Positions 20,110 to 57,993 are shown, counted from the stretch's first letter. The stretch is 64,000 nt of DNA from an uncultured bacterium (GCA_964236265.1 CAXSDE010000010.1:2826-66825), one strand, 5' to 3'. The notes: generated by a model not told the origin, from the letters alone. A program made the numbers and translations.

Positions 20110-20576
20110 GCTCCTGGGTCATCGTCACCGGGCACGACAATTTCGGCCGGACAGCCGCCCGCGGCTTCACCGTGCAAGGCGTCAAGTCGCGCCAGTGGCG
20201 CAAGGCGGCCGCGTTCGCGCCCGGCGACACGGCGCTGTTCTACGTGACCGGCGTCAAAGCCTTCGCCGGTGCCGTCACGATCACGTCCGAGACGTGGGAG
20301 GACCACGAGCTCTACTGGACATCCAAGCCGGGCGAGGATTATCCGTGGCGCTTCGAGATCGCGCCCCGGCTCGTGCTGCAGGACGAGGCCGACTGGGTGC
20401 CCGCCATCTCCGTGGTCGACGAGATCGCGTACTGCCGCAAATGGCCGCGCGAGCACTGGACGCTGGCCTTCCAGGGCAACGTCCACAGCTGGTCGGATGA
20501 GGATGCCGCCGTCGTGTTGGCGGCGCTGGACGCGTCGGCCGCCGCCGCCGTCGGCACGGTGCTGCGCGTCGGCTGA
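20106..20576 (+). CDS. Hypothetical protein, possible EVE/PUA-like domain
   Basis: 156 aa. Overlaps the upstream gene stop by 4 bp (ATGA). [13 protein letters not shown]...YPWRFEI is loosely EVE-like. Confidence 0.45.
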
Positions 20577-20582
20577 GCCACG

Positions 20583-20601
20583 CCGAACGAGAGTCGTTCG
20601 G
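20583..20601 (+). terminator. Hairpin directly after the stop codon (CCGAACGA-GAG-TCGTTCGG)
   Basis: Perfect 8-bp stem with a 3-nt loop starting 7 nt after the TGA at 20574-20576. No T-tract, which is typical for high-GC actinobacteria. Confidence 0.4.
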
Positions 20602-20699
20602 GACCCCAGGTCCCTCTCGCCGGAGGTGGGCGACGCGAGGCCCGTCGGCGACCACCGCCACGGAGCGAAAGGGGTGACAGCGGGCATCGCGGGGTTGGT

Positions 20700-21907: not shown

Positions 21908-23997
<2,090 letters not shown>

Positions 23998-24000
23998 GGG

Positions 24001-24977
24001 TCAGCCCTCCTTGCGCGTGCGCGGGTCGAGCAGCAGGTAGACCAGGTCGGCGAGGAAGTTCGCCGCGAGGACCGACAGCGTGATGATGAGGAAGATGCCC
24101 TGCATCAACGGGTAGTCCTTGGACTGGGTCGCCGCGAACAGCTGCAGCCCGATCCCCGGATACGAGAAGACGATCTCGACGAGGAACGTGCCACCGACGA
24201 TGAATCCGAGCGCGAGGGCAAAGCCGGAGATGCTCGGCAGCAGCGCGTTGCGCGCGGCGTAACTGAGCATCACACGGCGCTCGGACAGGCCCTTGGCATG
24301 GGCGACGGTGATGTAATCCTCCGACGCGACCGTCACCATCATGTTGCGCATGCCGAGGATCCACCCGGCGACGGACGACACGAGAATGGTGAACGCGGGC
24401 AGCAGGCTGTGCTGGAGCGCGTTGCCGATGAATTTCAGCTGCCAGTGCGGAACGATGCCCGGCGAGTAGCCGCCTGCCGAGGGGAAGAAGCTGTGCGGCC
24501 CGGCCATCAGGTCGATCATGATCAGGCCGAAGAAGAAATAGGGCACCGCGGCGAGGAACGTCGTCACCGGCAAGAAGGCATCCGCGATGCTCCCGCGGCG
24601 CCAGCCGAGCAGCACCCCGAGGCCGGTGCCGATGATGAAGCTGAGCACGGTCGTGGTGCCGACCAGGAAGACCGTCCACAGGATGCTCTGGCGGATGATG
24701 TCGAGCACCGGCGTCGGGAAGAACGTGAACGAGATGCCGAGGTCGTGCTCGATGAACAGCTTGTGGAGATAGTCGCCGTACTGCTTGATCAGCGGGTCGC
24801 CATTGAGCCCGAACAGGATGCGCAGCGAGGCCTCCTGCTTAGTGCTGATGCGGCCTTGCGACTTGGCGATGAGGCTGCTGACGGGGTCGCCGGGGATCAG
24901 GCGCGGGATGAAGAAGTTGACCGTGACGGCCGCCATCGCCGTGAACAGGTAGAAGGACACCCTGCGCAGCAGGTGCT

Positions 24978-24981
<4 letters not shown>
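24001..24981 (-). CDS. ABC transporter permease (DppB/OppB-like)
   Basis: Start [12 protein letters not shown]. Typical DppB fold. Confidence 0.9.
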
Positions 24982-26078
<1,097 letters not shown>

Positions 26079-26175
26079 AGAGCTTCCTGTCTGCCATTGG
26101 ACGTCAACTCACAGTCGCGCACGCTCCCCCGGACGGCAACCATCCGGGGGAGCGTGTCGCCGTACGCGGTGCGAC

Positions 26176-27966
26176 TTAGCTGGCGGGCTTCAGGGCGAGG
26201 ACGATCTGAAGCGCGTTCGGCTGCGTCGGCTGCGGAGCCGTCCACGGGTTGTCCTTGTCGGGCCAACCCGTCCAGTTCTTCGTGCTGTATTCCGCTCCGA
26301 CGTTGGACGCCGACGTGATGAGAACCGGCATGTTGTCGACGAAGATCTTCTCGATCGTCGCGAGGGCGGCCGTGCGCTTGGCGTCGTCCGCCGCGGTGGC
26401 GTACGTCTTGAGAGCCGCGGTGGCCTCTGCGTTCTGGAAGCGGCCGTAGTTGCCACCGCTGCCTGGCTTGCCGATCGGCTTCATGATGTCGCCGTTCATG
26501 ATGTTCTCGTAGAGGTCGTACGGCGTCGCGCCGCCGTTGGTCCAGTGCATCGCGGCGTCGAAGTCACCGGTGTCGATCTTGGCGAACCAGGCGTCCTCGT
26601 TGGCCTTCTCGACCTTGGCGTTGATGCCGATCTGCTTGAAGCTGTCGGCGATGATCGACAGGTCGGTCTGGTAGTCGGACCAGCCGGCAGGGTCGGTCAG
26701 CGTCAACGTGACCGGCTTGCCGTTCTTGTCCATCAGGTCGGCGCCGTTGTACTTGTAGCCGGCGTCGGTGAGCGCCTTCTTGGCGCCCTCGACGTCGACG
26801 GTGACGTCCTGGCCCTTGTAGTCGGCCGCGATGAACGGCTCACCAGCGGGCGTCGGGATGCCGGTGATGTTGGTGACCTCAGGGTAGAAGTAGCCGGCCT
26901 CGCCGATCTGGAAGATGTCGTCGCGGTTGATGACCATGTTCATGGCCTTGCGCAGAGCCGGGTCGTCGAACGGCGCATGCGTCTTGTCCGTGTTGAGCCA
27001 CAGGCCGTGCGCGCCTAGGTTCGGCGGGAACCACAGCTTGTTGTGGTCGGGGTCCTTGGCAGTGTAGACCTTTTCGATGTCCGGGATGAAGACGAAGCCC
27101 CAGTCGGCGTCACCGTTGGCGAGGGCGGTCGTCTCCGCGGCGTTGTCGGCGTAGGCCGTGTAGAGGAGCTTCGCGATCTGGGGCAGCGGCTGCCAGTAGC
27201 CACCGTCCTTGCGCAGGTCGAGCGTCGTCGTCTGCGGCGTGAAGGAGGTCAGCGTGTAGGGCCCGGAACCGACCGGGGTCTTGTTGGCGAACTTGCCCGG
27301 ATCGCCAGCGGTCTTCCAGATGTGCTCCGGCACGACGATCGTCGTGACGACCTTCGTCTGGTTGGTGAACTGCGACTCCTTGAACGTCACGGTGACCTTG
27401 TTGCCGGCTGCCGAGATCTTGTCGAACGGCAGGTTGTTGCCGTTGATCGACGGGTTGGCCTTGATGAGGTTGAACGTGAACGCCACGTCGGCGCCGGTGA
27501 CAGCCTGACCGTCGCTCCACTTGGCGTTGTCGCGGATCGTGAAGTCGACCTGCTGGAAGCCGTTGGACCAGGTCGCTTCGGTGGCCAGCCACGGCTTGCC
27601 CTTGGCGGCGGGGTCGATCGGGTTCATCATGATGAGGGGCTCGTAGATCATCGAGCGGGAACCGAGCGCCGCGCCGGCCGAGGAGCCGAGGAACGGGTTG
27701 AAGTTTTCGGTCTGCTGGCCGTTCGGCATACCGATCTTCAGGACGCCCGAAGCAGGACCCGCGGTGGCCGGCGCGGACGAAGAGTCCGACAACGACGGGG
27801 ACGGGGACATCATCGTGTCCGAGGTGGACGGCGAGGCCGAAGCGGGACCCGACGAGGACGAGGCGGCCGGAGAGGCCGAGCTCGACGTCGAGTTGGAGCA
27901 CGCGGCGAGACCGCCGAGTGCCAGCACACTAGCCACTGACGTGGCCACGGCGCGGTTGATACGCAT
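26176..27966 (-). CDS. ABC transporter substrate-binding lipoprotein, family 5 (peptide/nickel/oligosaccharide)
   Basis: Start MRINRAV; lipobox LAAC; Ser-rich linker; SBP_bac_5 body. Confidence 0.9.
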
Positions 27967-28666
27967 GCATTCTCCTTGAGTGGGTCTCATCCATACAGAA
28001 CGTGACTGGTGCTGTCTCGCCGCAGCTGCGGTGAGGGTGTCGCCTCCATGTGCGCGGATCAGACGACGACTCCGCGCGACCGGACCGGATCACCGGCAAC
28101 GATTACGCGACTTCGTTCCCTCGCTGAAACACCGCTCGTCGTGCGCGATGAGTTCGTCGAGATCGACCTTGGCGGACTTCCGTGCAACTGCCGACCTGCG
28201 GCGCCCCGGGGGGCGGGGCAAGCGTTCGCAGTCGACACAGCACTCCGTCCACATCGGTCCGGTCCGGCGGTGGGCAAGCATCGGTTCCGGCGTAAGTTTG
28301 TGGTGAGAGCGTGGCCAGGTCAATCACGATGAGGTAACGAAACGGCCTCGACTGAGCGCGCTCTCACCAGTGTCCGTCGCTTGTGCGAACCCACCCAACT
28401 GGCGTCGGCGGGAGTTGGGCATGCGTGAGGTGAGACTTCGCCGACAGCGTTAGACGCAACGGCGGTCGAGCCGGGCAGCGGCTCGGGAGCTGTCCGCCGC
28501 GATAGCGACGCGCGTTCCACCGAAGACTTGAAACGACCCGGTGCCCGAGCGCTGCCGACTTTAGCTGCGCACGTGCACCGGGTCGCCTTTCGTACCGTTA
28601 AACGTTCCGCGCGGGCAGCACGTGAGCGCGGGCACCAGGGACGCCGCGGACGTGTGGCTTCATCGA

Positions 28667-31598: not shown

Positions 31599-31714
31599 CG
31601 GTGCCGCGACCCCGTTCGCGGTGCGTCCCCGCGCCGCCGGCCCTCGCGACGCTAACCTCAGCGCCGGGTCCGCACGGGCGGCCCGGGGATGTCACGTTCC
31701 GAAGGAGCAGCACG

Positions 31715-32800
31715 GTGGTGGTCGACATCCGCGAGGTCGCAAGGCGCAGCGGGGTGTCGCCTGCCACGGTGTCGCGGGCGCTCAACGGACGGCCCGACGT
31801 CAGCAAGGCCACCCGCGAGCGCGTGATGAAGACGGCGAGCGACCTCGGCTATCTGCCCAACGAGCAGGCCCGCACGCTGGTCCGGCGGCGGTCGGACACC
31901 GTCGGCTTGATCTGGGACACGACCTACGTCGCCTCGCGGGGCCGCCAGCCGTTCCTGCAGGACCTGCTCGTTGCTCTGAAGATGGCGCTCGCCGACACCG
32001 GCTATCACCTCATGTTGCTCTCACCCCGCGGCGGCGACGGCACCACGGACGGTTTTCTCCGGATCGCCGCCCAGCACAGCCTCGAAGGCATCGTCCTGAT
32101 GGCCGTCGATGCCCACCAGCCGGCCGTGGACGCTCTCATCGCGTCGGCACGGCCGGTCGTCGGCCTCGACCTGCCGATCCTCGGCCGACGGGCGTCCAAC
32201 GTCGGCACGGACAACGCGGGCGGGGCCGGCATGGCGGTCGACCACCTCGTCGAGCTCGGCCACCGCCGCATCGCGGTGATCAGTGCGCGTCAGGACATGC
32301 TGCCCGCCGCGCAGCGCCACGAAGGCTTCTGCGCCGCGATGGCGCGGCACGGCCTCGAGGTGCCCGACGGCTACGTCGTCCGCGGCGACTTCTTCCTCGA
32401 CTCCGGACACCGGGCGATGCAGCAACTGCTGCGCCTGCCCGAGTTGCCGACGGCTGTCTTCGCCGGTGGCGACCAGATGGCGGTCGGTGCCGTGCACGCG
32501 ATCTACGAGGCGGGCCTCGAGGTGCCGCGCGACATCTCCGTCGTCGGTTTCGACGATGTCGAAATCGCCGCGCTCGTGCGGCCGGCGCTCACGACGATCC
32601 GCCAGGACTATCTGGAGATGGGCCGCGCGGCGGTGACCTTGCTGACCGAGCTCATCACCGAGGACCGCGAGCACGGCCGTGGGTCGGAGGCCCCCCGCTC
32701 GGTGGCCGCCCGGCATCCGGTGCTCGTGCCCGGAGCCCTCGTCGCGCGTGCCTCCACCGGCCCGGCGCCGACGCGCCGGCGCGGCCCCTCGCTGACCTGA
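31715..32800 (+). CDS. LacI-family transcriptional regulator
   Basis: N-terminal HTH (IREVARRSGVSPATVSRALNG) plus a periplasmic-binding-protein-like sugar-binding domain. GTG start after the GAAGGAG RBS. Confidence 0.85.
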   Translation: MVVDIREVARRSGVSPATVSRALNGRPDVSKATRERVMKTASDLGYLPNEQARTLVRRRSDTVGLIWDTTYVASRGRQPFLQDLLVALKMALADTGYHLMLLSPRGGDGTTDGFLRIAAQHSLEGIVLMAVDAHQPAVDALIASARPVVGLDLPILGRRASNVGTDNAGGAGMAVDHLVELGHRRIAVISARQDMLPAAQRHEGFCAAMARHGLEVPDGYVVRGDFFLDSGHRAMQQLLRLPELPTAVFAGGDQMAVGAVHAIYEAGLEVPRDISVVGFDDVEIAALVRPALTTIRQDYLEMGRAAVTLLTELITEDREHGRGSEAPRSVAARHPVLVPGALVARASTGPAPTRRRGPSLT

Positions 32801-44472: not shown

Positions 44473-45681
44473 ATGGAGCAGACGGGTCTCGGCGCAGTGC
44501 AGACAGCGGTGCAACTGCTGCGCGCCGAAGATGTGTCGCAGCGCGACAGCTTGTCACTCGCAGCTGAGTTGCACGACCTGCACTGGCTGATGGAGCAACT
44601 CGGCGGCGAGTTCCTGCGACGCCTCGCCGCCTTCGACGCCAACGGCGGCGCACTCGCCGATGGTCACCTCACCACCGCATCGTGGCTGCGCGACCAATGC
44701 CTGCTGACTCCGGCCGCCGCCTCGCAACGCGTCGCCGGTGCGCGCGCAGTCCGCGACGAGACCCCCGTGGGTAACGCCCTCGCGGAGGGCGCCATCTCGC
44801 TGGCGCACGCGGGTGTGATCCGTGCGGGTGTGCGGTCGCTGCCAGCCGCCGTGGCAGGGACGGTCGAAACCATCCTGGTCAATGCTGCAAGGGTCAACGA
44901 GGCGTCCGCTTTGCGCGGTATCACCGACCAACTGCGCTCCCAGATGGCGCCGGTGCTGCTCACCGAGACGCACGACGATCAGCACGTGCGCCGCCACTTG
45001 TCCATCAGCCAAACCCTCGGCGGCTCAGTTGTCCTCGGTGGGCAGCTGGACACCGAGGCCGGCGAGTTCGTGATGACCGCCGTCCAGACACTGGCGCTGC
45101 CTAACGGCCCCGACGACGACCGCACGCCGGGGCAGCGGCGCGCCGACGCCCTCTACGAGATGGCTCGCCTCGCGCTCGACAGCGCCGCCCTCCCCGACGT
45201 CAACGGCGAACGCCCGCACGTGAGCATCGTCGTGCCACTCGACACGCTCCGCGGTGCGCCGGCGAGCCCGGCCGCCACCGCCGAGTGGACCGGCCCATGG
45301 AGCGTCGAGGTCGTCCGCCGCATCCTGTGTGATGCCGGTGTCAGCCGCATCATCACCGACGGCGCCAGCCAGGTCCTCGACGTCGGCCGGCTCACCCGCA
45401 CCGTCAGCGCGCCGATGCGCCGTGCGCTTGCCGTGCGCGACCGCGGCTGCATCATCCCCGGGTGTCACCGGCCACCTCGCTGGTGCGACGCCCACCACGT
45501 CCACCACTGGGCCGACGGCGGCCCCACCTGCCTGGACAACCTCGTGCTCCTCTGCCGCGCGCATCACCAAGCCGTCCACGACGGCGCCTGGCAGCTGCTG
45601 TGGGACAGCGCACACCAGCGCTACCTCGCCCAACGGCCGGACCTGTTGGCTCATTACGCCACCACTTCGCGGGCACCCTGA
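44473..45681 (+). CDS. DUF222 + HNH endonuclease domain protein (mycobacterial REP13E12-family-like)
   Basis: N-terminal DUF222-like helical region. C-terminal HNH motif CIIPGCHRPPRWCDAHHVHHWADGGPTCLDNLVLLCRAHHQAVHDGAW. Confidence 0.85.
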   Translation: MEQTGLGAVQTAVQLLRAEDVSQRDSLSLAAELHDLHWLMEQLGGEFLRRLAAFDANGGALADGHLTTASWLRDQCLLTPAAASQRVAGARAVRDETPVGNALAEGAISLAHAGVIRAGVRSLPAAVAGTVETILVNAARVNEASALRGITDQLRSQMAPVLLTETHDDQHVRRHLSISQTLGGSVVLGGQLDTEAGEFVMTAVQTLALPNGPDDDRTPGQRRADALYEMARLALDSAALPDVNGERPHVSIVVPLDTLRGAPASPAATAEWTGPWSVEVVRRILCDAGVSRIITDGASQVLDVGRLTRTVSAPMRRALAVRDRGCIIPGCHRPPRWCDAHHVHHWADGGPTCLDNLVLLCRAHHQAVHDGAWQLLWDSAHQRYLAQRPDLLAHYATTSRAP

Positions 45682-48343: not shown

Positions 48344-49339
48344 TCAGTCGTCGGCGATCCCACTGCTCGTGAGGCGGAAGCTTCCGCGCAGACGCTCACG
48401 CGTGCTCGCACCGGCCCCAGCGAGCGCCAGCGCGTGCAGCACGGCGCCGGTGACGGGGGGCACGTCCAGGATGCGCGTGCGCGCACGCGGCGCGTGGATC
48501 GCCAGCCGGGCATCGATACCGTCGACGAGCATCGCGGGACCGTGCTGAAGCATCCCGCCGCCCAGCACGACCGGCACCTCCTGATGGAGCAGGTCGAGTG
48601 TGCGGAGGTGGGCCACGATCATCGTCGTGATCTCCTCGGCGAGGCGGTCGACGATCGCCGTCGCGACCGGATCCCCCGCCACTGCGGCAGCGAAAACGAC
48701 CGGCGCGGCCGCGTGCAGGTCGTCGCCGTTGAGCCGGCCTTCGACGACACCCATGGCAACGTCCTCCGGCTCCATCCCGAAATGTTCTGTCATCGCGGCC
48801 CGCAGCAGCGTCTGCGCTCCGCGGCCGTCGCCGGCGCGCACGGCATCGCCGAGGCCGGCCAGGGCCACCCCTTCGCCGCCGCCCCAGTCGCCGGTCATCG
48901 GGCCGAGCGCGAGAAAACGCGCGGTGCGTCCGTCGGGGTGCACGCCCGTGGCGTTGATGCCCGCGCCGCACACCACGGCGATGCCCCACCCGGCGGGAGC
49001 GCCGGCATGCAGGATCGCGAACGTGTCGTTGTGCACGACCTCGCGGCGCGCATTGCCCTTCATGGCGATCTCCACGGCGAAAGCAGCCTCGTCGGCCGGC
49101 GTGTCGAGATTGGCGAGGAAGTAGGCGGCGACGGCGACGGGCTCGTCCGTCGCCAGGCCTGCTTCGTTTTTCGCTCGCTGGATGAGGTCGGTGACGTTGT
49201 CCACCGTCGTCGTCATGCCCTCGAAGTAGGCGCGCGTGCCCACCCCGCGCACGCGCGAGAGCACGTCGCCGTCAGTGGTGGCGAGCACGACGTCGGTCTT
49301 GGAGTTGCCACCGTCGATGCCGATGACGTAGTCAGACAC
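48344..49339 (-). CDS. BadF/BadG/BcrA/BcrD-type ATPase (N-acetylglucosamine-kinase-like sugar kinase)
   Basis: GTG start VSDYVIGIDGGNSKTDVVL (glycine-rich phosphate-1 loop). Overlaps the GH4 gene by 8 bp. Confidence 0.75.
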   Translation of the reverse strand: MSDYVIGIDGGNSKTDVVLATTDGDVLSRVRGVGTRAYFEGMTTTVDNVTDLIQRAKNEAGLATDEPVAVAAYFLANLDTPADEAAFAVEIAMKGNARREVVHNDTFAILHAGAPAGWGIAVVCGAGINATGVHPDGRTARFLALGPMTGDWGGGEGVALAGLGDAVRAGDGRGAQTLLRAAMTEHFGMEPEDVAMGVVEGRLNGDDLHAAAPVVFAAAVAGDPVATAIVDRLAEEITTMIVAHLRTLDLLHQEVPVVLGGGMLQHGPAMLVDGIDARLAIHAPRARTRILDVPPVTGAVLHALALAGAGASTRERLRGSFRLTSSGIADD

Positions 49340-50616
49340 TGGAGTCCCCGTTCGGGAAGAAGGCGGGCAGAAAATCCCGGTTGAGCTCGAGCAGCTCGTC
49401 GAGCAGCGGCACGAGGGTGTCCCATTGCCGGACGAGAGGATTGGCGAGCAGCGCCCTGCGCGCGACAGTGCGATCCCCGGTGCGCGCGGCTTCGATGGCA
49501 AGCACTTCGTACGCCGTGACTTCTTGAACGAGGCCGAGCATTTCGGGCGGCAACGGCGGCACGAAGACCGGGTGCGCGCCGTCCAGGTCGACATGCGCGG
49601 GCACTTCGACCACCGCGTCCGCCGGCAGCCCTTCGATCGTCCCGTTATTGCGGACGTTGACGTAGTGGTGAGCGCCGTCACCGGTGAACAGGCTCGTCAC
49701 GAGGGCGGCGGCGGCCTCGCTGTAGTAGGCCCCGCCGCGGGACTGCAGCAGCTCGGGCAGCGCGTCGAGCGCCGGGTCCTGATACAGCTCGAGAAGCTCG
49801 GCCTCGATCTTCATGACGTCGGTCGCCCGGTGGTTGCCGAGCTGCTGCGTGTGCAACTCCTCGGCGGTGCAATAGAAGTAGTGCAGGTAGTACGACGGGA
49901 TCGCGTTGATCGTGCGCAGCAATTCGACAGGTGCCCCGATATCGGCGGCCAGCTCCGCAGCCTGCGGCCCGGCCAGCCACTCCGGCAGCCGGTCGACTCC
50001 GGCGACCTCCACGGAACGGATCCACGTGAGGTGGTTGAGGCCGGCGTGACCCAGGCGGACCGCATCGGGGGCGACGTCGAACGCCTTCGCGACGCGGCGC
50101 TGGAAGCCGATGCCGACGTTGCACAACCCCACGGCACGGTGACCGGCGTCGAGCAGCGCGCGCGTCACGATTCCGACAGGATTCGTGAAGTCGACGATCC
50201 ACGCCCCCGGCGCCGCCAGCCGCCGCACGTCGTCCGCGATCCGGAGCACCACGGGCACCGTGCGCAGCGCCTTCGCGAAGCCGCCCGCCCCCGTCGTCTC
50301 TTGGCCGATCAGCCCGTGCTTGTTGGGCGTCGTCTCGTCGCCGAGGCGCGCCGTCTGGCCGCCCACACGCAACTGGATGAGCACGGCCGACGCGCCGGTG
50401 ATGGCGGCGTCGCGGTCGGTCGTCGTGACGAGACGGCCGGGGAAGCCGTGCCGCGCGAGGATGCGCTGGGCGAGCGCGCCGACGACGCGCAACCGCTCGG
50501 CGTCGATGTCGTGCAGGACGAGCTCGTCGACGGGGAGTGCCGCTGCCCGGCGCGCGAAACCTTCCACGAGCTCCGGGGTGTAGGTGCTGCCTCCCCCGAT
50601 GACGGTGATCTTCACG
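49332..50616 (-). CDS. Glycoside hydrolase family 4 (NAD+/Mn2+-dependent; 6-phospho-beta-glucosidase/ChbF/LicH-like)
   Basis: GTG start MKITVIGGGSTYTPELV (Rossmann NAD site). Conserved GH4 motifs CNVGIG, GLNHLTW and HYVNVRNNG. GGAGA RBS. Confidence 0.85.
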
Positions 50617-50708
50617 GGTGTCTCCAGTCGGGGTCTCGTGCGCCGGATGCGGGCGCGCAGGCAGTGCCGCACGCCGCCGCGGTGGTGATGATCGTCGGAG
50701 GGCGGAGG

Positions 50709-51794
50709 TCAGCCGGAGCCGACCTCGACGGGGGTCGTGCCGGGGTCGGGCCGAGCCACGTGGCACGCCGCGGTGTGCTGGTCGCCGAGCAACCGCCCCG
50801 GCGGCGTCACCTCGGAGCAGATGTCGATCGCCAACGGGCACCGGAAGCGGAACCGGCAGCCCGGCGCGGGGTCGACGACCTTCGGTGGCTCGCCGCGGTC
50901 GGTCTCGGCCCCGATGGTCAGTGAGGCCCGCGGGTCGGGCACCGCAGACAGCAGCAACTGCGTGTAGGGATGCTTCGCACGCGAGAGGACGGCCTCGGTC
51001 GGGCCGGACTCGACGATGTGACCGGCATACATGATGACCATGCGGTCGGCGACGTAGCGGGCGCTCGCGATGTCGTGCGTGATGTAGAGGAACGACACGC
51101 CCGCCTCGGCGCGGAGCTTCGACATGAGGTTGAGCACACCGATGCGGATCGACACGTCGAGCATCGACACCGGCTCGTCGGCGAGGATGAGCTTCGGCCG
51201 GTAGGCGAGCGCCTGCGCGAAGCCGATGCGCTGGCGCTGGCCGCCGCTGAGCTCGTGCGGGAACCGCTCCAGGATGTCGGCGGCCGGAGCCAGCCCCACG
51301 GCCTCGACGACCCGCTCGGCCTCGGCCGTGCGCTGCGCCTTCGACGTCATGTCCGGGCGGTGCAACTCGAGCCCGCGGACGATGCCGTGCGACACGCGGT
51401 AGGCCGGGTTGAGCGAGCTGAAGGGATCCTGGAACACCATCGGCACATCGCTGCGGTAGCCCTGCAGCGCCCGCCGGGTCCGCATGCCGGACAGCGGCTT
51501 TCCCTCGTACAGGATCTCCCCGCTCGTCGGCTTGTAGACCCGCGCGAGGAGCCGCGCGATCGTGCTCTTTCCGCTGCCGCTCTCGCCCGCGAGGGCCACG
51601 ATCTCGCCGCGATTGATGACGAGGCCGGCGTCGTCGACGGCGTGGAGTTTGCGCCGCGACCACAGGCCACCGCCGATCGAGAAGTGCTTGGTGAGCAGCG
51701 TTGTCTCGAGCAACGGGACCGTTGTCGCGGCGGTGCCGTCCGGCCGGACCGCCCGCTCGGCCGCCGGCGTCGATATCCGGGTCGACTCGCTCAT
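50709..51794 (-). CDS. Oligopeptide-type ABC transporter ATP-binding protein (DppF-like)
   Basis: Start MSESTRIST. Walker [10 protein letters not shown], signature LSGGQRQRI. Confidence 0.9.
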   Translation of the reverse strand: MSESTRISTPAAERAVRPDGTAATTVPLLETTLLTKHFSIGGGLWSRRKLHAVDDAGLVINRGEIVALAGESGSGKSTIARLLARVYKPTSGEILYEGKPLSGMRTRRALQGYRSDVPMVFQDPFSSLNPAYRVSHGIVRGLELHRPDMTSKAQRTAEAERVVEAVGLAPAADILERFPHELSGGQRQRIGFAQALAYRPKLILADEPVSMLDVSIRIGVLNLMSKLRAEAGVSFLYITHDIASARYVADRMVIMYAGHIVESGPTEAVLSRAKHPYTQLLLSAVPDPRASLTIGAETDRGEPPKVVDPAPGCRFRFRCPLAIDICSEVTPPGRLLGDQHTAACHVARPDPGTTPVEVGSG

Positions 51795-52801
51795 GCTGTC
51801 TGCACCGGGAGCTGCAGCGGCACCGAATCGGTGACGGACAACGCGTTCGGCGCGTGCCACAGACAGCGCGCGTAGGCCGAGCTGACCGCATACAACGCCG
51901 GCTCCTCGTGCGTGCAGCGTTCCTTGACGAGCGTGCACCGCGGCGAGAACCGGCAACCCGCGGGCGGGTGCGCGAGGTCGGGCGGACTCCCGGGGATGCC
52001 GGTCAGTTCCACCCGCGGACCGGTGATCGACGGGAACGCGTCGAGCAGTCCCTGGCTGTAAGGGTGCGCCGGGAGGTCGAAGACCTGCCGAGTCGGTCCG
52101 ATCTCGGCGACCTGACCGGCGTACATGACCATCAACTGGTCGGAGAAGTGGCTCACCAGGGACATGTCGTGGGTGACGAAGATGACCGCGAAACCCAGTT
52201 CCTGCTGCAGTTCTTTGATCTGCACCATGAGCGACCGCTGCGCGACGACGTCGAGGGCGGAGGTCGGCTCGTCCATGATGACGAGGTCGGGCGTGAACAG
52301 CAGCGCCATCGCGATCATCGCCCGCTGCCGCATGCCCCCGCTGAGCTGATGCGGATAGCTCTGGAGGTGGATCGGGTCGATGCCGACGAGACGCATCACC
52401 TCCACCGGGCGTCCCTCGGACACGCGTGTGTCGCGGTGGGCGGCCAGCGTGTCGGCGAACTGCTGCCCGATCGTCTTCACCGGGTTGAGCGCATTCATGG
52501 CGCTCTGCATCACCACGGAGAAGTCCCGCCACCGCATGGCCCGCAGTTGCTTGTCGGTCAGCGTCACGAGATCGCGGCCGGAGAAGCGGACCGACCCGCC
52601 CGTGATCGCCGCCGGCGCGCTCAGCAACTGCGCGATGGCGAACAGCAGCGTCGACTTACCGCACCCGGACTCGCCGACGATGCCGACGAACTCGCCGCGA
52701 TGCACCGTCAGGTCGACCCCGTCGACGGCGCGGACGCCGCCGCGGGAGCTGTCGTATTCGACCCGCAGGTCGCGGACCTCAAGAATGCGCGCGCTTGACA
52801 C
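51791..52801 (-). CDS. Oligopeptide-type ABC transporter ATP-binding protein (DppD-like)
   Basis: GTG start with GGAGG RBS. Walker A GESGCGKST, signature LSGGMRQRA. Confidence 0.9.
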   Translation of the reverse strand: MSSARILEVRDLRVEYDSSRGGVRAVDGVDLTVHRGEFVGIVGESGCGKSTLLFAIAQLLSAPAAITGGSVRFSGRDLVTLTDKQLRAMRWRDFSVVMQSAMNALNPVKTIGQQFADTLAAHRDTRVSEGRPVEVMRLVGIDPIHLQSYPHQLSGGMRQRAMIAMALLFTPDLVIMDEPTSALDVVAQRSLMVQIKELQQELGFAVIFVTHDMSLVSHFSDQLMVMYAGQVAEIGPTRQVFDLPAHPYSQGLLDAFPSITGPRVELTGIPGSPPDLAHPPAGCRFSPRCTLVKERCTHEEPALYAVSSAYARCLWHAPNALSVTDSVPLQLPVQTA

Positions 52802-53714
52802 GGGACCTCCGGATCGGACGCAGGGCCGGGTTGCTGATCTCGTCGAACGCGTAGTTGAGCAAGGCGAACGAGACCCCGAGGGTAGCGACGGCGAGGCCCG
52901 GCGCCAGCGCCCACGCGGGGAATCCACTGGCGAGCGCTCCCTGATTCTGCGCCCAGTAGAGCATCGTGCCCCAGCTCAGCGAGCCGGGGTCGCCCAGGCC
53001 GAGGAACTGCAGTCCGGCCGCGGTGAGCACGGCGTAGAGCGCGGCGCCGAGGAAGTTGGCCACGATCAGCGACGACATCGTCGGCAGCATCTCGCGGATG
53101 ATGATGTAGGACCGGCGCTCGCCGCGGACTCGCGCCGAGGTCAGGAAGTCGCGGTTGCGCAGCGACAGTCCCTGTGCGCGCATCTGCCGGGCGCCGTACG
53201 ACCATCCCGTCACGACGAGCACGACGATGACCACGCCGAGGTTTCCCTTACCCGCGAACGTTGCCAGCACGATGATGAGCGGGAACGTCGGGAGCACCAG
53301 GAAGATGTCTGTGATGGCGGACAGGATGTCGTCCGCGATCCCGCCGAGATAGGCCGCGGAGACGCCGATCAGCACCGACAGGATCGTGGCGCCGAGACCC
53401 GCGACCAGCGCGATGATGAGCGACTCGCGCGTGCTGTAGATGAGCTCCGCGTAGACATCCTGGCCGAGCCCCGTGGTGCCGAGCCAGTGCTGGGCCGACG
53501 GGTGCAGCAGAGGGATGTCGCCGATGTCGCGCGGGTCTGCGTGCTGCCACGGCACGAACAGGTGCGGGAAGGCGGCCAGCAGACAGAAGAGGACGAAGAG
53601 ACCCGCGCCCACCATGGCCTTGCGGTTGCCCCGCACGGCGCGCAGCACGCCGCCGCGGCGCCGGCGCGGCAGTTCCTCGGCCACGGCGGCGGGGTCGACG
53701 AGCAAGGTGGTCAT
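52779..53714 (-). CDS. ABC transporter permease (DppC-like)
   Basis: Start [14 protein letters not shown]_transp_1 permease. Confidence 0.9.
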
Positions 53715-53718
53715 GGCC

Positions 53719-54717
53719 TCACCCCTTCGTCCGGGCACGGGGGTCGAGGAGGAACACCGCGACATCGCAGAGCAGCACGCAGATGAGCACGGCCAGCGTC
53801 ACCAGCAGGAACAGCGCCTGCAGCAGCGGATAGTCGGTGCTGATCGTCGCGGAGTAGAACATGTGGCCGAGCCCGGGATAGTTGAAGACGTACTCGACGA
53901 GGATCGTTCCGGCGATGACGAATCCCAGCGACATCGCGAACCCGGACAGGTTGGGCAGGAACGCGTTGCGGGCCGCGTAGCCCATCATCACGCGCCGGTT
54001 CGACAGACCCTTGGCGCGGGCCATCCGCACGTAGTCCTCGCCGAGCGTCGTGATCATGTTGTTGCGCATCGTCAGGATCCAGCCGCCGATCGCCGTGATG
54101 AGGATCGTCGCCGCCGGCAGCACCGCATGCTCGAGGACGCTCGCGATGAACGGTCCGTGGAAGCCCGGCGTCAGCCCGATGTCGTAGTTGTTGTCGTTCG
54201 GCAGCAGCGCGTGCGGCCCGTTCGCGAAGAGAACGATCAGCAACAGCGCCACCCAGAAGTAGGGCAGGGCGGACGTGACGACGAACATCGGCGGCAGGAC
54301 GCCGTCGAGGAAGCCGCCGCGCCGCCACCCGGCGATGATCCCGATGGAGGTGCCCAGCAGGAACGCGAGCAGCGTCGTGACTCCGACCAGACCCAGCGTC
54401 CACGGGAGCGCCTGTCCGATCAGCGTCGTGACGGGCGCCCCGAGCGTGCCGCCGATCGAGATGCCCCAGTGCCCGGTCACCATGTTGCCGAGATACTCGA
54501 CGTACTGCTGGGCGATGTTCTTGCCCGGGTCGAAGCCGAACTGCTGCAGCATCGCCCGCAGCTGTTCGACGTCGACCACGTGCCCGCCGTGCGAGAGCCG
54601 CGCCTTCATCGCCGAGACCGGATCGCCCGGCATCATGCGCGGAATGAAGAAGTTGAGGGTGATCGCCGCCCACAACGTGAGGACGAAGAATCCGAGCCGG
54701 CGGAGCAGGAACCTCAT
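53719..54717 (-). CDS. ABC transporter permease (DppB-like)
   Basis: Start [17 protein letters not shown]. Confidence 0.9.
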
Positions 54718-54755
54718 GGCGGTCACCTCCCAGCGTCGAGTGTTGCGCGGACGGG

Positions 54756-56585
54756 TTACTTCTGCGCGGACTTCGAGAACACGTTGAGCAGGATCTGCTC
54801 GTTGTCCGGGACGTTCCAGGGCGCGGGCTGCGCGTAGGGGTTGTCCTTGGTCGGCCAGCCGTCGAAGTCCGTGGTGTTGTACTGATACCAATCCACGGAT
54901 TCCGTCGTCGGGATGAACGGCACGTCGGCGATCATCGCGGCCTCGATCTGCTTGACGATCGCGATCTGGCCGGCGTCGTCGGCGGAGGCGTATTTATCGA
55001 ACAGCGCGTCGAGCGCCGGGTTCTTGTAGCGCATGTAGTTGGACGGCGCATCCGTGCCGATCGGTGCCGAGTTCTTCGAGTAGAGCAACTGGCGAAGCTC
55101 GTAGTAGGGCGACGGTCCAGCCGACAGCTGCGGCCCGTAGGCCAGGTCGAAGTCGCCCTTGTAGAGGCGGTCGTTGTAGGTCTGACCCTCGAGGTCCTTG
55201 ATAGTCAACGAGATGCCCAGCGGCTTGAGCTGCTGCTTGATGACCGCCAGCGAGGCGTCCCAGTCGGTGTAACCGGACACCGTGATGACGTCGAGCTCGA
55301 GCGGGTTGTCCGGCGTGTAGCCCGCCCCGGCCAGCAGCTCCTTCGCCTTGGCCGGGTTGGGCTTGTCGTAACCGGAGGCGGTCAGCGCGGCGGAGTCGAA
55401 GTATTTGTCGAACGTAGGGACGACGATGCCGGTCTGATTGGCGGCGGGCTGGTAGCCGCTCTCCCCGATCTTCGAGATCTGCGCTCGGTCGAGACCGTAG
55501 GCGATCGCCTGCCGGACGGCCAGCGTGCTCGTGGCCTTGTGCGACGGGTCGACGTTGGGCAGGAGGGCGACGTTCATCATCGGCGGGAACCAGTAATTGT
55601 TGTCCGGCGACTTGCCCTTGTAGAACGTGTCGATGTTGGGGATGTATTGCCCGCCCCATTGCGCCTTGTTGTTGGCGAGGTCGAGGTTGGCCGGATTGTT
55701 GTCGAGATACGCCGGATACTGCACCGTCTGGATCGCGGGCTTGCCCGGCTGCCAGTAGTGCGGGTTGGCCGTGTAGGTGATGTTGTTGGGCGTGCACGGG
55801 TGGACCATGAACGGCCCGGTGCCGACGGGGTTGGGGTCGGCCCAGGTGTCGCCCTTCGACGCGGCTTCGCCGGTCGACCAGATGTGCTTCGGAACGATGG
55901 TGACCGTGCCGGCAAACAGGTAGAAGTAGGCCTGCGCGGGCTGCGCGAACGTCAGCGTCACGGTGCTGCCCGACGCCGTGGCGCTCTGCAGCCCCGCGCC
56001 GGTCCACAGCGAGTAGAGATCCAGGGCGGGGTTCTTCTTCATGAGCTCGAACGTGTAGGCGACATCGTCGGCCGAGAACGGCTGACCGTCGTTCCAGGTC
56101 ACGTTCTGGCGCACGGTGAAGGTGATGGACTTCTTGTCGGAGCTCCACTTGTAGGACTCGGCGAGCATCGGCGTCTCGGCACCCGCCTTCAACGCGTTGA
56201 CGTAGACGAGGGGCTCGTAGACGAACCCGTTCGCCTGGGGGCTGACGGCCGGATTGAACGGGTTGAACTGGCACGTCCAGCTAGCGCCGGACTCGTTCGA
56301 GATCGTCAGCGTGCCGCCCGGCTTGTGCACCGTCGTGTCGGCACCGGTGCCCGTCGGTGACGGCGCCGCGGACTGCGACCCCGATCCCGTCGCGCTGCCC
56401 GGTCCGCTCGGGCTGCTCGTCGCCCCGCCGGCCGTCCCCCCACTGGTCGTCCCCCCGCCGGCCGTCCCCCCGCCGGCCGTCGAGGTCGAGGTCGCCGTCG
56501 TGCTGCTCCCCCCACTCGTGCAGGCGGCGGCCAACAGAGCCACCACGCCAGCGACAGCCGCACCGGATATGCGCCTCATCGTCAT
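54756..56585 (-). CDS. ABC transporter substrate-binding lipoprotein, family 5 (oligosaccharide/peptide)
   Basis: LLAAAC lipobox; Gly/Thr/Ser-rich linker; SBP_bac_5 domain. Confidence 0.9.
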
Positions 56586-56709
56586 TGCCCCTCACTGCTG
56601 GTTCGGTGCCCGGCATTCGCCTGGCTGCTGACGGTTGCTCGCTGCTGGTGCTTGCTACTGGTGCTGCTGCCGGCCTTCGCTGCGAAGTTGTTAGGAAGCT
56701 AACCTACCA

Positions 56710-56720
56710 ATTCTGGGAAT
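56710..56720. promoter_or_regulatory. Candidate operator palindrome ATTCTGGGAAT immediately upstream of the ROK regulator and divergent from the ABC/GH4 operon
   Basis: caATTCtggGAATac lies 8 nt before the ATG at 56728. The adjacent TAGGaagctaaCCTA is also inverted. The region is lower-GC. Confidence 0.3.
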
Positions 56721-56727
56721 ACAAGGG

Positions 56728-57993
56728 ATGCAGCAGGCAACGATCGTTACGATGTCGCGGATCGAGGAGGCGCACGTGCCGGCTGGACGCGGGCAAGGCC
56801 CGGCGGCGCGCCCGCAACTGCTCCGCGAGATGAACGAGCAGGTGCTCCTGCACCTCATCCGCGAGCGTGGCCCGCTGTCGCGTGCGGATCTCGCCCGCGT
56901 GTCGGGACTGTCCAAGCCGACCGTCTCCCTCGGCCTTGCCAACATCGAGCGCGCAGGTCTCGTGCGCGCCGCGGGTGTCCGCACCGGGGTGCCGGGACCG
57001 GCAGCCATCCTGTACGAAGTGCGGCCCGACTGCGGCTATGTCCTCGGCCTCGACGTCGGCCGGCACTACATGCGGGCCGCGGTCGCTGACATGGCCGGCG
57101 CCGTCCGCAGCAGGGGTGCCGTGCGGGTCACCGCCACCGACGGGCCGACCCGCGTTGCCGAGCTGACGACGCTCGCCGACAAGGTGCTCGGCGAGGCACT
57201 GCTGACCCACGCCGACATCACGCAGACCGTCATCGGCAGCCCTGGTGTCTACGACCCACAGCGCGACGCCCTGGCGTTGTCGAGCAACCTCCCCGGCTGG
57301 GGTGTTCCCGCGGTCCTCGACCAGCTGCGGTCGGCCTTCGGTGCCTCGGTGATGGTGGAGAACGACGTCAACGTCGCGGCCCTGGCCGAGCGGGCACACG
57401 GGCACGGGCGCGACATCGACAGTTTCGCGTTCGTCTCGATCGGCACCGGCATCGGCATGGGCCTCGTGCTCGACGGAAAGCTGCACCGGGGGGTGCACGG
57501 CATCGCCGGTGAGATCGGTTACCTGCCGTTCTCCGAGGGCAGCGGCGGCGACACCGATACCGACGCCGCGCGCGAGCGCGGGACGTTCGAGGCCATTTCC
57601 AGCGCCGACGCCGTCGTGCGGGCGGCGCAGCGGGCCGGGGTCGGCGACGCGACGACGGCCGTGCGGGTCTTCGACGCGGCCGCCGCTGGGGACGCCGCGG
57701 CCTCGTCCGTGGTTGCGGAACAGGCGCGCATCGTGGCGAAGGCGGTCTGTGCCGTCGTCACCGTCGTCGACCCGGAGCTGATCGTGCTCGGCGGTGGCAT
57801 CGGCCAGGCGCCCGGCTTCGTGGAGGCGGTCGCGAGCGAGTTGCACGCGCTCGCACCCGTCATGCCCGACGTGAAGATGAGCGCCCTCGGCGCCGACGCC
57901 GTGATCGACGGTTGCCTGGCCGCCGGGATCGATCGCGCGTGGTCGCTTCTCAGCGCCGCGGTGCCGAGCCCCGCGGCGGGCACCGCCGACTGA
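56728..57993 (+). CDS. ROK-family transcriptional regulator (NagC/Mlc-like)
   Basis: N-terminal wHTH (LSRADLARVSGLSKPTVS) plus a ROK sugar-kinase-like domain (GLDVGRHYMRAAVAD...GIGMGLVLDGKLHRG). Confidence 0.9.
   Translation: MQQATIVTMSRIEEAHVPAGRGQGPAARPQLLREMNEQVLLHLIRERGPLSRADLARVSGLSKPTVSLGLANIERAGLVRAAGVRTGVPGPAAILYEVRPDCGYVLGLDVGRHYMRAAVADMAGAVRSRGAVRVTATDGPTRVAELTTLADKVLGEALLTHADITQTVIGSPGVYDPQRDALALSSNLPGWGVPAVLDQLRSAFGASVMVENDVNVAALAERAHGHGRDIDSFAFVSIGTGIGMGLVLDGKLHRGVHGIAGEIGYLPFSEGSGGDTDTDAARERGTFEAISSADAVVRAAQRAGVGDATTAVRVFDAAAAGDAAASSVVAEQARIVAKAVCAVVTVVDPELIVLGGGIGQAPGFVEAVASELHALAPVMPDVKMSALGADAVIDGCLAAGIDRAWSLLSAAVPSPAAGTAD

Follow-up and report, generated by a model that had tools for sequence, protein, structure and literature searches.

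The locus described here raises the question of how a GH4 glycosidase that is encoded with a peptide-type ABC importer and a sugar kinase obtains its substrate, and of which sugar this substrate may be. It is an actinobacterial gene cluster in a stretch of 64,000 nucleotides from an uncultured bacterium (the window), and we consider it on balance probable that its operon serves the PTS-independent uptake and catabolism of small β-1,4-linked glucosamine-containing chito-oligosaccharides, with the kinase acting first and GH4 second. Candidate substrates would then be chitosan-derived (GlcN)2-3 or the GlcN-GlcNAc of partly deacetylated chitin.

A GH4-kinase pair encoded with a peptide-type ABC importer

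Positions 48344-57993 of the window hold eight genes, all of them intact (Table 1). Pfam searches identified a family-5 lipoprotein, two permeases, two ATPases, a GH4 glycosidase and a BadF-family kinase, all encoded on the minus strand, and a ROK-family protein encoded divergently, so that the gene content and layout given in the original prediction are borne out.

Table 1. Genes and candidate operator of the locus, with positions counted from the first letter of the window
Feature	Position	Strand	Basis
ROK-family regulator, HTH + ROK sugar-binding domain	56728..57993	+	Pfam ROK 1e-41, MarR_2 1e-6
Candidate operator/promoter block GTTGTTAGGAAGCTAACCTACCAATT	56686..56713	.	Conserved across family-5-type loci
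Family-5 (cluster C) solute-binding lipoprotein	54756..56585	-	SBP_bac_5 3e-66
ABC permease 1, DppB/OppB type	53719..54717	-	BPD_transp_1 3e-42; GGGAGG before start codon
ABC permease 2, DppC/OppC type	52779..53714	-	BPD_transp_1 3e-21, OppC_N
ABC ATPase 1, DppD/OppD type	51791..52801	-	ABC_tran 8e-27 + oligo_HPY 2e-19
ABC ATPase 2, DppF/OppF type	50709..51794	-	ABC_tran 6e-31 + oligo_HPY 6e-19
GH4 glycosidase, NAD+/Mn2+-dependent, CsnH/ChbF-like	49332..50615	-	Glyco_hydro_4 (PF02056) 4e-47, Glyco_hydro_4C (PF11975) 1e-50
BadF/BadG/BcrA/BcrD-family sugar kinase, CsnK-like, translationally coupled to GH4	48344..49339	-	BcrAD_BadFG (PF01869) 3e-25

The two ATPase genes overlap by 4 nt, a gap of 93 nt separates the second of them from the GH4 gene, and the divergent intergenic region between the ROK gene and the operon measures 142 bp. 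The GTG start codon of the kinase gene at 49339 sits within ...CCAGTGTCTGA, the 3' end of the GH4 gene, and the 8-nt overlap that had been claimed for this pair is therefore real. Its junction, RTGNCTGA, is present in 32 of the 49 adjacent GH4-kinase pairs and the same gene set was found in 15 loci of our first survey, arguing that these genes have not come together by chance. Neither a chitosanase gene nor nagA or nagB was found beside the locus in the window, a point against the reading given above.

The GH4 protein belongs to the 6-phospho-β-glycosidase branch

As a family, GH4 also holds enzymes that act on unphosphorylated substrates (AglA, alpha-glucuronidase and LplD), and a grouping of the window GH4 with such non-phospho alpha-glycosidases was the outcome that the original prediction had named as its refutation. 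When solved structures were ranked, the closest relatives instead turned out to be 6-phospho-β-glucosidases (1s6y/5c3m, 1e-96; BglT, 1e-73), while the AglA, alpha-glucuronidase and LplD types were far weaker matches (1e-19 to 1e-22). Bit scores fell from 327 for 1s6y and 252 for BglT to 141 for GlvA, 81 for LplD and 72-75 for AglA/Agu4B, and an NJ tree also placed the window GH4 nearer to the phospho-β enzymes. The N-terminal part of the protein carries the NAD-binding GxGS motif as VIGGGSTYTPE (residues 5-15).

The active site gives a similar picture. In E. coli ChbF, which lies on the same GH4 branch and is 38% identical to the window protein, the -1 subsite for the 6-phospho-sugar and the metal consists of R96, E112, T113, N150, C172, N173, H203, Y258 and R282 (PMC13197890). 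Alignment showed that all nine residues are identical in the window GH4 (R90, E106, T107, N145, C165, N166, H195, Y243 and R263), as they are in 84/84 aligned GH4s, including the 54/54 enzymes of the actinobacterial clade, whereas E. coli MelA, an enzyme for unphosphorylated substrates, deviates at four of the nine positions. By its sequence, the window GH4 belongs to the 6-phospho-β-glycosidase branch (BglT/ChbF/LicH), with a predicted need for the 6-phosphate. ChbF, annotated as a "monoacetylchitobiose-6-phosphate hydrolase", cleaves GlcN6P-GlcNAc but not GlcNAc6P-GlcNAc (PMC13197890), indicating that this branch naturally handles GlcN at the -1 position.

PTS genes and BadF-family kinases are mutually exclusive GH4 neighbors

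If the GH4 substrate must carry a 6-phosphate, the coupled kinase could be what provides it. Its ASKHA ATPase motifs (IDGGNSKTD, NDT, GAGIN and VLGGG) are all intact, and they are conserved across the kinases linked to GH4. At the equivalog level, the protein matches no kinase with an established specificity: the best solved relative is MurK (8zo3) at only 1e-19, human NAGK follows at 4e-10, and the NCBIfam model NagK_SO3507 matches at 1e-12 with 47.9 bits, far under its cut-off of 370. To our knowledge, the characterized BadF-family sugar kinases (NAGK, Shewanella NagK, GspK, MurK and the Sulfolobus hexokinase) all act on monosaccharides, and this record, together with the MurK and NagK matches, counts against the phosphorylation of a disaccharide. 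A firm role for the BadF-family kinase is also weakened by the second kinase, of the ROK family, that is encoded in 13 of the 15 family-5-type loci. This extra kinase is absent from the window; no ROK-family kinase matching NF042998 is encoded in the locus, whose single ROK protein, the HTH regulator, reaches 98 bits with that model (cut-off, 550).

These observations make room for the reverse order, in which GH4 would cleave an unphosphorylated di- or oligosaccharide and the BadF-family kinase would then make GlcN-6-P or GlcNAc-6-P from the products. Such an order agrees with the nearest characterized kinase relatives being monosaccharide kinases, with the existence of GH4 enzymes for unphosphorylated substrates and with the literature on the Streptomyces cluster csnREFGHK (SCO2657-2662; Dubeau et al. 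2011, Viens et al. 2015). [quoted passage not shown] We nevertheless regard this order as unlikely, although it deserves serious consideration, since the 6-phospho-sugar subsite is invariant throughout the actinobacterial clade and since the kinase is tightly coupled to GH4 and not to the transporter, as fits a partner that produces the GH4 substrate.

The distribution of these genes argues in the same direction. Among the 83 loci surveyed for GH4 neighbors, none combined PTS genes with a BadF kinase gene beside GH4. The PTS-linked GH4 loci lacked a BadF kinase in 5/5 cases, as does E. coli chb, while such a kinase was present in 52/54 actinobacterial-clade loci and in 19/24 Chloroflexi-type loci, none of which carried PTS genes. 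This mutual exclusion is what the earlier idea of a kinase replacing the PTS predicts; it fits the substitution of one phosphorylating step by another and favors the kinase-then-hydrolase order.

The binding protein is predicted to bind a β-1,4 oligosaccharide

The solute-binding protein has a lipoprotein signal peptide that ends in the lipobox LLAAAC. Its closest solved relatives are the chitooligosaccharide-binding proteins VhCBP (5yqw, 3e-61) and VcCBP (1zty, 2e-58) of Vibrio, followed by manno/cello-oligosaccharide binders of Thermotoga maritima (1e-45), which marks it as a protein of the sugar-binding type, in keeping with the sugar import envisaged in the original prediction. The Vibrio importer belongs to the same peptide-type transporter family and serves β-1,4 amino-sugar oligomers, but identity between the Vibrio and window binding proteins is only ~30%. 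Furthermore, (GlcNAc)2 imported by Vibrio enters phosphorylase/hexosaminidase routes and is not known to take a GH4 and kinase route.

Of the sugar triad of VhCBP (W363/D365/W513), alignment indicates that D365 and W513 are kept and that W363 is replaced by Tyr. The residues of VhCBP that read the N-acetyl group (R436, F437 and F411) are not conserved, being Ser, Asn and Leu in a gapped loop alignment. This loss argues against (GlcNAc)2 as the ligand, while it does not tell GlcN from Glc. The lipoprotein is predicted to bind a β-1,4 oligosaccharide.

A neutral ligand has to be considered, in which case the kinase and then GH4 would process cellobiose or another neutral β-glucoside in a BglK-like manner, with no amino sugar involved. 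Beyond the relationship to the T. maritima binders and the replaced N-acetyl readers, the annotation of the closest solved GH4s as 6-phospho-β-glucosidases speaks for it, BglT among them. The substrate of T. maritima BglT (1up4-1up7) is cellobiose-6'-P, and this organism, too, is not known to have a PTS; BglT lies on the same GH4 branch as the window enzyme but comes from a different phylum. Genomic contexts, however, make cellobiose less likely than GlcN-containing chito-oligosaccharides: orthologous operons are found beside chitin- or glucosaminide-related genes and not beside cellulases. In Dactylosporangium, the operon adjoins a GH18 chitinase gene and a GntR/UTRA regulator gene, and on a soil contig a GH2 gene with an exo-β-D-glucosaminidase Ig domain and a GH20 gene come after it, the binding proteins of these two operons being 69-70% identical to that of the window. 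In addition, csn-layout loci have a matching GH4-kinase pair, the candidate operator resembles the CsnR box (see below), and the window contains a second family-5 importer by a GH1 β-glucosidase remnant that would be the more obvious cellobiose system. Altogether, a neutral substrate appears quite improbable to us.

That the transporter imports peptides, nickel or muropeptides, with its adjacency to the GH4, kinase and dap genes reflecting cell-wall recycling or coincidence, is very improbable: its NCBIfam matches are indeed to Opp, Dpp and Nik models, the best solved kinase relative is indeed a MurNAc/GlcNAc kinase, and dapD, dapE-like and aminotransferase genes do flank the locus, but these NCBIfam scores are all far under their cut-offs (NikA, 103 against 393), the top structural relatives of the binding protein bind sugars through Asp/Trp contacts that are kept, the flanking dap genes are not retained at related loci, the regulator belongs to the ROK sugar sensors, and GH4 chemistry requires a free 3-OH for cleavage, which excludes MurNAc at the -1 position.

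A candidate operator is conserved upstream of the ROK gene

The HTH of the divergent regulator matches at residues 35-83 (Pfam MarR_2/HTH), and its translation may in fact start a little downstream of position 56728. This protein shares 59-76% identity with the regulators of other family-5-type loci and only 36-39% with the ROK proteins of csn-layout loci. The block at 56686..56713 contains TAGG-N7-CCTA, along with TAACCT as a possible -10 hexamer, and it aligns just upstream of the ROK gene in 14/14 family-5-type loci. The corresponding pattern, GTTAGKAARSTADMCT, has a single match in the window (56690-56705; expected, 0.03). When 92 loci were searched, it was found in 16, including the 15 family-5-type loci examined, and in 0/76 others, with one site per locus except for L027, which has two. 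The candidate operator is thus conserved at every ROK-regulated family-5-type locus examined.

Its AGG-N7-CCT core is common to the operators of CsnR and RokL6. The canonical CsnR box AGGAAANTTTCCT was not found upstream of the operon; the best site, AGGAAGCTAACCT (56693-56705), agrees at 9/12 positions and is mismatched at position 9, which is critical in the CsnR box together with position 5. The likeness to the CsnR box is limited to the core and the left half-site (AGGAA), and this mismatch, with the low identity to the csn-layout ROK proteins, counts against a close csn kinship of the regulation.

A transporter-swapped relative of csnREFGHK

Under the kinase-first reading that we favor, the lipoprotein would bind the oligosaccharide extracellularly, for unmodified uptake by the peptide-type ABC importer. 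The BadF-family kinase would then transfer phosphate from ATP to O6 of the non-reducing sugar, as a cytoplasmic stand-in for the phosphorylation that the PTS performs at uptake in enterobacteria and Firmicutes. GH4 would split the resulting 6'-phospho-disaccharide by NAD+/Mn2+ redox-elimination, releasing a free sugar alongside GlcN-6-P (or Glc-6-P). TAGG-N7-CCTA would be the site from which the divergently encoded ROK protein keeps both transcription units repressed, until the imported oligosaccharide releases it.

The original prediction considered this arrangement as not commonly described. This view needs to be revised, since csnREFGHK already unites GH4 (CsnH) and saccharide kinase (CsnK) genes with an ABC importer and a ROK repressor. 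In csn-layout Streptomyces loci, GH4 has 73-75% and the kinase 54-57% identity to its window counterpart, and these loci share the 8-nt overlap and its junction; kinship with the experimentally studied SCO2657-2662 genes is judged from the layout and from the protein families encoded. The window cluster is a modular variant of the Streptomyces cluster that keeps its GH4-kinase pair; a family-5 importer complete with ATPases stands in place of the CUT1 transporter, and another ROK regulator in place of CsnR. While the csn transporter consists of an SBP_bac_1 protein and two permeases in a cluster without ATPase genes, the window importer comes with two, and no SBP_bac_1 match was found near the window GH4. 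The csn transporter reportedly depends on MsiK, an ATPase encoded elsewhere. Another difference is that csnR is the first gene of the csn operon, whereas the window ROK gene is divergent. The peptide-type transporter is the transporter-family difference from csn, and this variant is itself widespread, occurring in at least 15 actinobacterial genomes. As a transporter-swapped csn relative that recurs in many related genomes, the locus is of interest but not unprecedented.

Two other systems illustrate parts of the proposed route. In E. coli chbBCARFG, the ChbF substrate is the kind of product that the proposed kinase would make, but there it is the PTS that phosphorylates during uptake, the pathway requires the ChbG deacetylase, and control lies with the AraC-type ChbR; the window has no PTS genes and no ChbG homolog, and a predicted ATP-dependent kinase instead. 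A route through the β-glucoside kinase BglK and a phospho-β-glucosidase reportedly operates in Klebsiella and Listeria (Thompson et al. 2002). It follows the same PTS-independent logic, as BglK (NF042998; PDB 4htl) is a cytoplasmic ATP-dependent kinase that makes a 6'-phospho-β-disaccharide for a phospho-specific glycosidase, but BglK is a ROK-family kinase acting on cellobiose or gentiobiose, whereas the coupled kinase of the window belongs to the BadF family.

Elsewhere in the window, a GH18 chitinase gene carries dre-like sites, while the GH4 operon carries the ROK site. This mirrors the split described for Streptomyces, in which DasR goes with chitin and CsnR with chitosan.

The transporter-GH4-kinase operon

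Gene calls and Pfam searches showed that in the 48344-57993 region, the minus strand carries seven intact genes in tandem, divergent from a gene encoding a ROK protein, exactly the gene content of the original prediction. The 8-bp overlap that had been noted between the GH4 and BadF kinase genes is also real: the kinase GTG at position 49339 is located within the final GH4 codons (...CCAGTGTCTGA). The intergenic region between the ROK gene and the operon is 142 bp, and the untranslated gap between the ATPase 2 and GH4 genes is 93 nt, compared to 12 nt for the equivalent gap in the comparison locus L087. Scanning this gap revealed no motif and no operator, promoter-like or terminator-like element, and a promoter and terminator scan across the whole locus gave nothing above background in this DNA of ~70% G+C. 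The operon is flanked by housekeeping genes (dapD, a dapE-like M20 peptidase gene and an aminotransferase gene) that are not conserved in relatives.

Positions of the operon genes and of other features of the window
Feature	Position	Strand	Remarks
Family-5 solute-binding lipoprotein, 609 aa	56585..54756	-	lipobox LLAAAC, then Ser/Thr/Gly-rich linker
Permease 1	54717..53719	-	
Permease 2	53714..52779	-	
ATPase 1	52801..51791	-	oligo_HPY C-terminal domain
ATPase 2	51794..50709	-	oligo_HPY C-terminal domain
Untranslated gap	50616-50708		between ATPase 2 and GH4 genes
GH4 glycosidase, 427 aa	50615..49332	-	
BadF/BadG/BcrA/BcrD-family kinase, 331 aa	49339..48344	-	
ROK protein	56728..57993		N-terminal helix-turn-helix; divergent from operon
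ROK-upstream block	56686-56713		GTTGTTAGGAAGCTAACCTACCAATT
GH18 chitinase	9198-11042	-	CBM_4_9 and CBM_5_12; ~37 kb from operon
DasR-responsive element match	11121-11136		AATGGTCTACACCAAT; 3 mismatches
DasR-responsive element match	11164-11179		ATTGGTCAAGACCAAT; 3 mismatches
Second family-5 ABC system	22945-27990	-	binding protein, one ATPase, two permeases
GH1 beta-glucosidase	19875-21759	-	profile positions 111-349 only
LacI-type regulator	31601-32800		
DUF222 protein	44473-45681	+	2.7 kb from operon
Long ORF, 622 aa	33010-34878	+	coding-like GC3
Long ORF, 539 aa	59723-61342	-	coding-like GC3
RHS/DUF6531 ORF, >1990 aa	3-5981	-	runs off window start

Conservation of a predicted 6-phospho-sugar pocket in GH4

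Among solved structures, the Geobacillus 6-phospho-beta-glucosidases 1s6y and 5c3m (E 1e-96) come closest to the window GH4, with T. maritima BglT (1e-73) next, followed by 6-phospho-alpha-glucosidases (1e-37 to 1e-40) and then by LplD, alpha-glucuronidase and AglA, which act on unphosphorylated substrates (1e-19 to 1e-22). At the sequence level, these matches to solved structures are unambiguous, and they place the enzyme among the phospho-glycosidases, as originally predicted, and not with the non-phospho alpha-glycosidases.

In Salmonella ChbF, the -1 subsite that holds 6-phospho-glucose consists of R96, E112, T113, N150, C172, N173, H203, Y258 and R282 (2026 analysis, PMC13197890). When E. 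coli ChbF and MelA were aligned with the window GH4 and the survey GH4s, all nine residues were found to be identical in the window enzyme (R90, E106, T107, N145, C165, N166, H195, Y243 and R263) and in 84/84 survey GH4s, including 54/54 of the actinobacterial clade, while MelA, whose substrate is unphosphorylated, departs at four of the nine positions. Since the nine residues are invariant across the survey and MelA differs at four of them, the predicted pocket for a 6-phosphorylated gluco-configured sugar is strongly conserved where loci hold no PTS.

A known design with an exchanged transporter and regulator

Homologues of the window GH4 number in the thousands, and the top ones are actinobacterial (72-88% identical). 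Our survey, made of 80 genome loci found with this GH4 plus loci from an exact protein look-up, revealed two main layouts in the actinobacterial clade. Type A, the csn layout, was found in 31 loci (Streptomyces, Actinoallomurus, Angustibacter and others), with co-directional genes for a ROK protein, an SBP_bac_1 protein, two permeases, GH4 and the BadF kinase. Type B was found in 15 loci including the window (Acidothermaceae B102, Nakamurella, several Mycobacteriales and other actinobacterial MAGs), with a divergent ROK gene followed by genes for a family-5 binding protein, two permeases, two ATPases, GH4 and the BadF kinase; in three of these (L014-L016), the kinase gene is located downstream of the ROK regulator. 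The window GH4 is 72-79% identical to the GH4s of both types, its kinase and type A kinases share 54-57% identity, and the RTGNCTGA junction that creates the 8-nt overlap is present in 32/49 adjacent GH4-kinase pairs, from both types. The named proteins closest to the binding protein come from Frankiaceae MAGs (90% and 83%), which makes a Frankiales-like actinobacterium the probable source; an exact look-up of the window GH4 protein returned no record. In a neighbour-joining tree built without support values, type B GH4s are nested among type A, and that of the family-5 locus L089 (Dactylosporangium) branches far from those of the other family-5 loci, which may indicate that the transporter module was exchanged more than once.

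The csn cluster, which many actinomycetes have conserved, is controlled via the CsnR box AGGAAANTTTCCT (PMC6097792), and CsnK has been termed a 'putative oligosaccharide kinase' (PMC5635096). A 2023 Streptomyces study stated that 'little is known of glucosamine metabolism', the roles of CsnH and CsnK being only presumed. A GH4 paired with a kinase, in a locus with an ABC importer and a ROK regulator, has then been described before, although its biochemistry has not, and the novelty first attributed to this arrangement was overstated: it is the csn design with another transporter and regulator module, a family-5 variant that is common in soil Actinomycetota. This link to the studied cluster (S. 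coelicolor SCO2657-2662) is based on gene layout and family content. Literature searches on chitosan with GH4 and BadF, on TM1280/TM1281 and on IBT99 returned nothing useful.

Complementarity of the kinase and the PTS, and order of the reactions

PTS EIIB/EIIC(/EIIA) genes were found beside GH4 only in E. coli chb and in five Firmicute or enterobacterial loci, all without a BadF kinase, while a BadF kinase and no PTS gene were found in 52/54 actinobacterial-clade loci and 19/24 Chloroflexi-type loci; the two kinase-less actinobacterial-clade loci (L045 and L047) are cut short by contig ends. This complementarity, together with the invariant phospho-sugar pocket and the conserved translational coupling, leads us to prefer, without regarding it as proven, that the kinase would make the GH4 substrate over its mopping up GH4 products. 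The import-kinase-GH4 mechanism originally proposed has thus gained comparative support and is plausible, and we give about an even chance to its acting, in that order, on GlcN-containing chito-oligomers.

That GH4 would cleave first, leaving the products to the BadF kinase, is in line with the fact that all characterised BadF-family sugar kinases we know of are monosaccharide kinases, but the same three observations go against this order of events and we consider it unlikely. The window kinase matches characterised BadF kinases only remotely (MurK at 1e-19; the NagK_SO3507 model at 48 bits for a cut-off of 370), and it retains intact ATPase motifs that are conserved across the GH4-linked kinases. 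Whether the kinase or the hydrolase acts first becomes sharply testable with two recombinant proteins. A role in muropeptide or cell-wall recycling, considered from the similarity to MurK and from the dap neighbours, was rejected since conservation of the dap flanks does not extend to related loci and since GH4 chemistry is established to require a free 3-OH.

Candidate substrates of the importer

The solved relatives of the binding protein rank from the Vibrio chitooligosaccharide-binding proteins VhCBP (3e-61) and VcCBP (2e-58), through the T. maritima manno/cello-oligosaccharide binders (1e-45), down to the far more distant peptide and nickel binders, and NCBIfam peptide and nickel models score far under their cut-offs. 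Two of the residues by which VhCBP contacts the sugar, D365 and W513, are retained in the alignment, and Tyr takes the place of W363; the N-acetyl readers R436, F437 and F411 align to Ser, Asn and Leu, a weak point considering that this loop alignment is gapped. Two orthologous operons lie beside glycoside hydrolase genes. In Dactylosporangium (L089 7069-18056; binding protein 70% identical), a GntR/UTRA regulator and a GH18 chitinase are encoded divergently from the transporter-GH4-kinase operon, with no ROK gene and no ROK-type operator at this locus. On a soil contig (L092 8339-21683; binding protein 69% identical), the operon is followed by a co-directional GH2 gene with an exo-beta-D-glucosaminidase Ig domain and then by a GH20 gene.

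ChbF, which accepts GlcN6P and not GlcNAc6P at its -1 site and splits GlcN6P-GlcNAc but not GlcNAc6P-GlcNAc (PMC13197890), provides a precedent for the window GH4. The binding-protein relatives, the contexts of the orthologous operons, the match to the csn-layout GH4-kinase pair and this precedent point to GlcN-containing chito-oligomers as the probable substrate, rather than (GlcNAc)2, cellobiose or peptides. A neutral beta-glucoside, to which the intermediate rank of the T. maritima binders would correspond, is less likely still than hydrolysis before phosphorylation, and a peptide or muropeptide role is very unlikely.

A conserved block upstream of the ROK gene

The block GTTGTTAGGAAAGTAGACTWMCAATY is common to all 14 type B loci examined and lies immediately before the ROK gene. 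The pattern derived from it, GTTAGKAARSTADMCT, has one match in the window (0.03 expected) and is found in 16/92 loci and in 0/76 others: it lies between the ROK gene and the operon in 15 family-5-type loci, the sixteenth locus being L087, from the same contig as L009. The ROK protein of the window, which shares 59-76% identity with the regulators of type B loci but just 36-39% with those of type A, would repress the operon via this block, presumably until an inducer is bound.

The window block holds a perfect TAGG-N7-CCTA, with the AGG-N7-CCT core noted for the CsnR and RokL6 operators and the left half-site AGGAA of the CsnR box. Its fit to that box is nonetheless limited to 9/12 positions, with critical position 9 mismatched, and no canonical CsnR box was found in the window at <=2 mismatches or in the Streptomyces loci fetched. 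Because the canonical box is missing from the window, its regulator is not named CsnR here. The sole exact CsnR box among all loci is directly upstream of GH4 in a groundwater MAG (L053 9945-9957), where the GH4 frame (10001-11089) has an in-frame stop within the fetched stretch. Related elements occur in type A loci (AAGCAACTTTCTT in Streptomyces, AAGAAAGTTTCCT in Angustibacter and AGGAAAGTTTCCA in L046), and we read the type A and type B elements as probable diverged operators of one regulator family.

Streptomyces and Actinoallomurus loci of the csn layout (L001, L011-L013, L017, L019-L026, L028-L030, L039 and L050-L051) carry a near-invariant TATAAATAAGCAACTTTCTTTCTTACAG ~40 nt upstream of the ROK gene, a near-palindrome (AAGMAA-N-TTTCTT) unlike the published CsnR box. 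These loci may be paralogous to the csn cluster studied so far; alternatively, the CsnR box may vary more than its consensus would suggest.

A second kinase and separable modules

A ROK-family kinase without a helix-turn-helix is the first operon gene, between the regulator and the binding protein, in 13/15 type B loci (L008, at 3180-4154, L004, L005, L007, L009, L010, L014-L016, L018, L031, L043 and L086) and in no other locus type of the survey. It is absent from L027 and from the window (56586-56727), where the regulator directly faces the binding-protein gene, and it matched no curated kinase family at cut-off. Its presence fits a two-kinase design, with one kinase priming the disaccharide and the other phosphorylating the free sugar released by GH4; alternatively, two monosaccharide kinases could serve a hetero-disaccharide. 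Both the regulators of this locus type and this kinase have GEIGY in place of the usual ROK ExGH motif (window 56728-57993; L008 1864-3120 and 3180-4154; L092 8339-9520), not followed by the usual Cys-rich zinc motif, with 3-4 Cys per whole protein.

The transporter and GH4-kinase modules are separable, since in Kribbella (L088) and on a related MAG contig (L091) the transporter module, accompanied by its ROK regulator and its ROK kinase, occurs with neither GH4 nor BadF kinase. In L091, a DUF222-HNH gene (15882-17807) immediately follows this module, and a DUF222 gene is also found near the operon in the window; this family is often tied to HNH endonucleases in actinobacteria.

A proposed PTS-free route for GlcN-capped chito-oligomers

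Altogether, the survey shows that the GH4-kinase pair is a conserved, translationally coupled module, that it is joined to at least three different transporter/regulator modules and that it stands in for the PTS adjoining the same GH4 branch in enterobacteria and Firmicutes. We tentatively propose, with somewhat less than even confidence, that the GH4-coupled BadF kinase is a dedicated di-/oligosaccharide 6'-kinase acting on (GlcN)2 or GlcN-GlcNAc, which, with a 6-phospho-beta-glucosaminidase-type GH4, would form a general PTS-free route in Actinomycetota and Chloroflexota for GlcN-capped chito-oligomers that GH20/GH3 enzymes cannot cleave, with freely exchangeable transporters and regulators (CUT1 with CsnR, family-5 with another ROK, family-5 with GntR). 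To our knowledge, such a kinase activity is undescribed for the BadF family. How actinomycetes catabolise glucosamine and chitosan is still poorly defined, and many 'peptide/nickel ABC transporter' plus '6-phospho-beta-glucosidase' annotations in soil Actinomycetota are probable chito-oligosaccharide systems. In practical terms the interest is modest and concerns the annotation of chitin/chitosan turnover in soil metagenomes and enzymes to process chito-oligosaccharides.

Other features of the window

The sole two DasR-responsive element matches in the window are both located upstream of the GH18 chitinase gene, which suggests that the chitinase is under DasR-type control and the GH4 operon under ROK-type control, a combination that also exists in Streptomyces. 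The binding protein of the second family-5 ABC system is 33% identical to the first and likewise closest to Vibrio CBPs; the GH1 gene that follows this system is split over several frames and could represent a pseudogene or result from misassembly. The window also encodes a LacI-type regulator. The two long ORFs with coding-like GC3 gave no Pfam match at E<=1e-5. The ORF at the window start has many RHS repeats and a DUF6531 domain, by which it is assigned as a polymorphic-toxin-type protein, and GC and AT skew are marked in this region.
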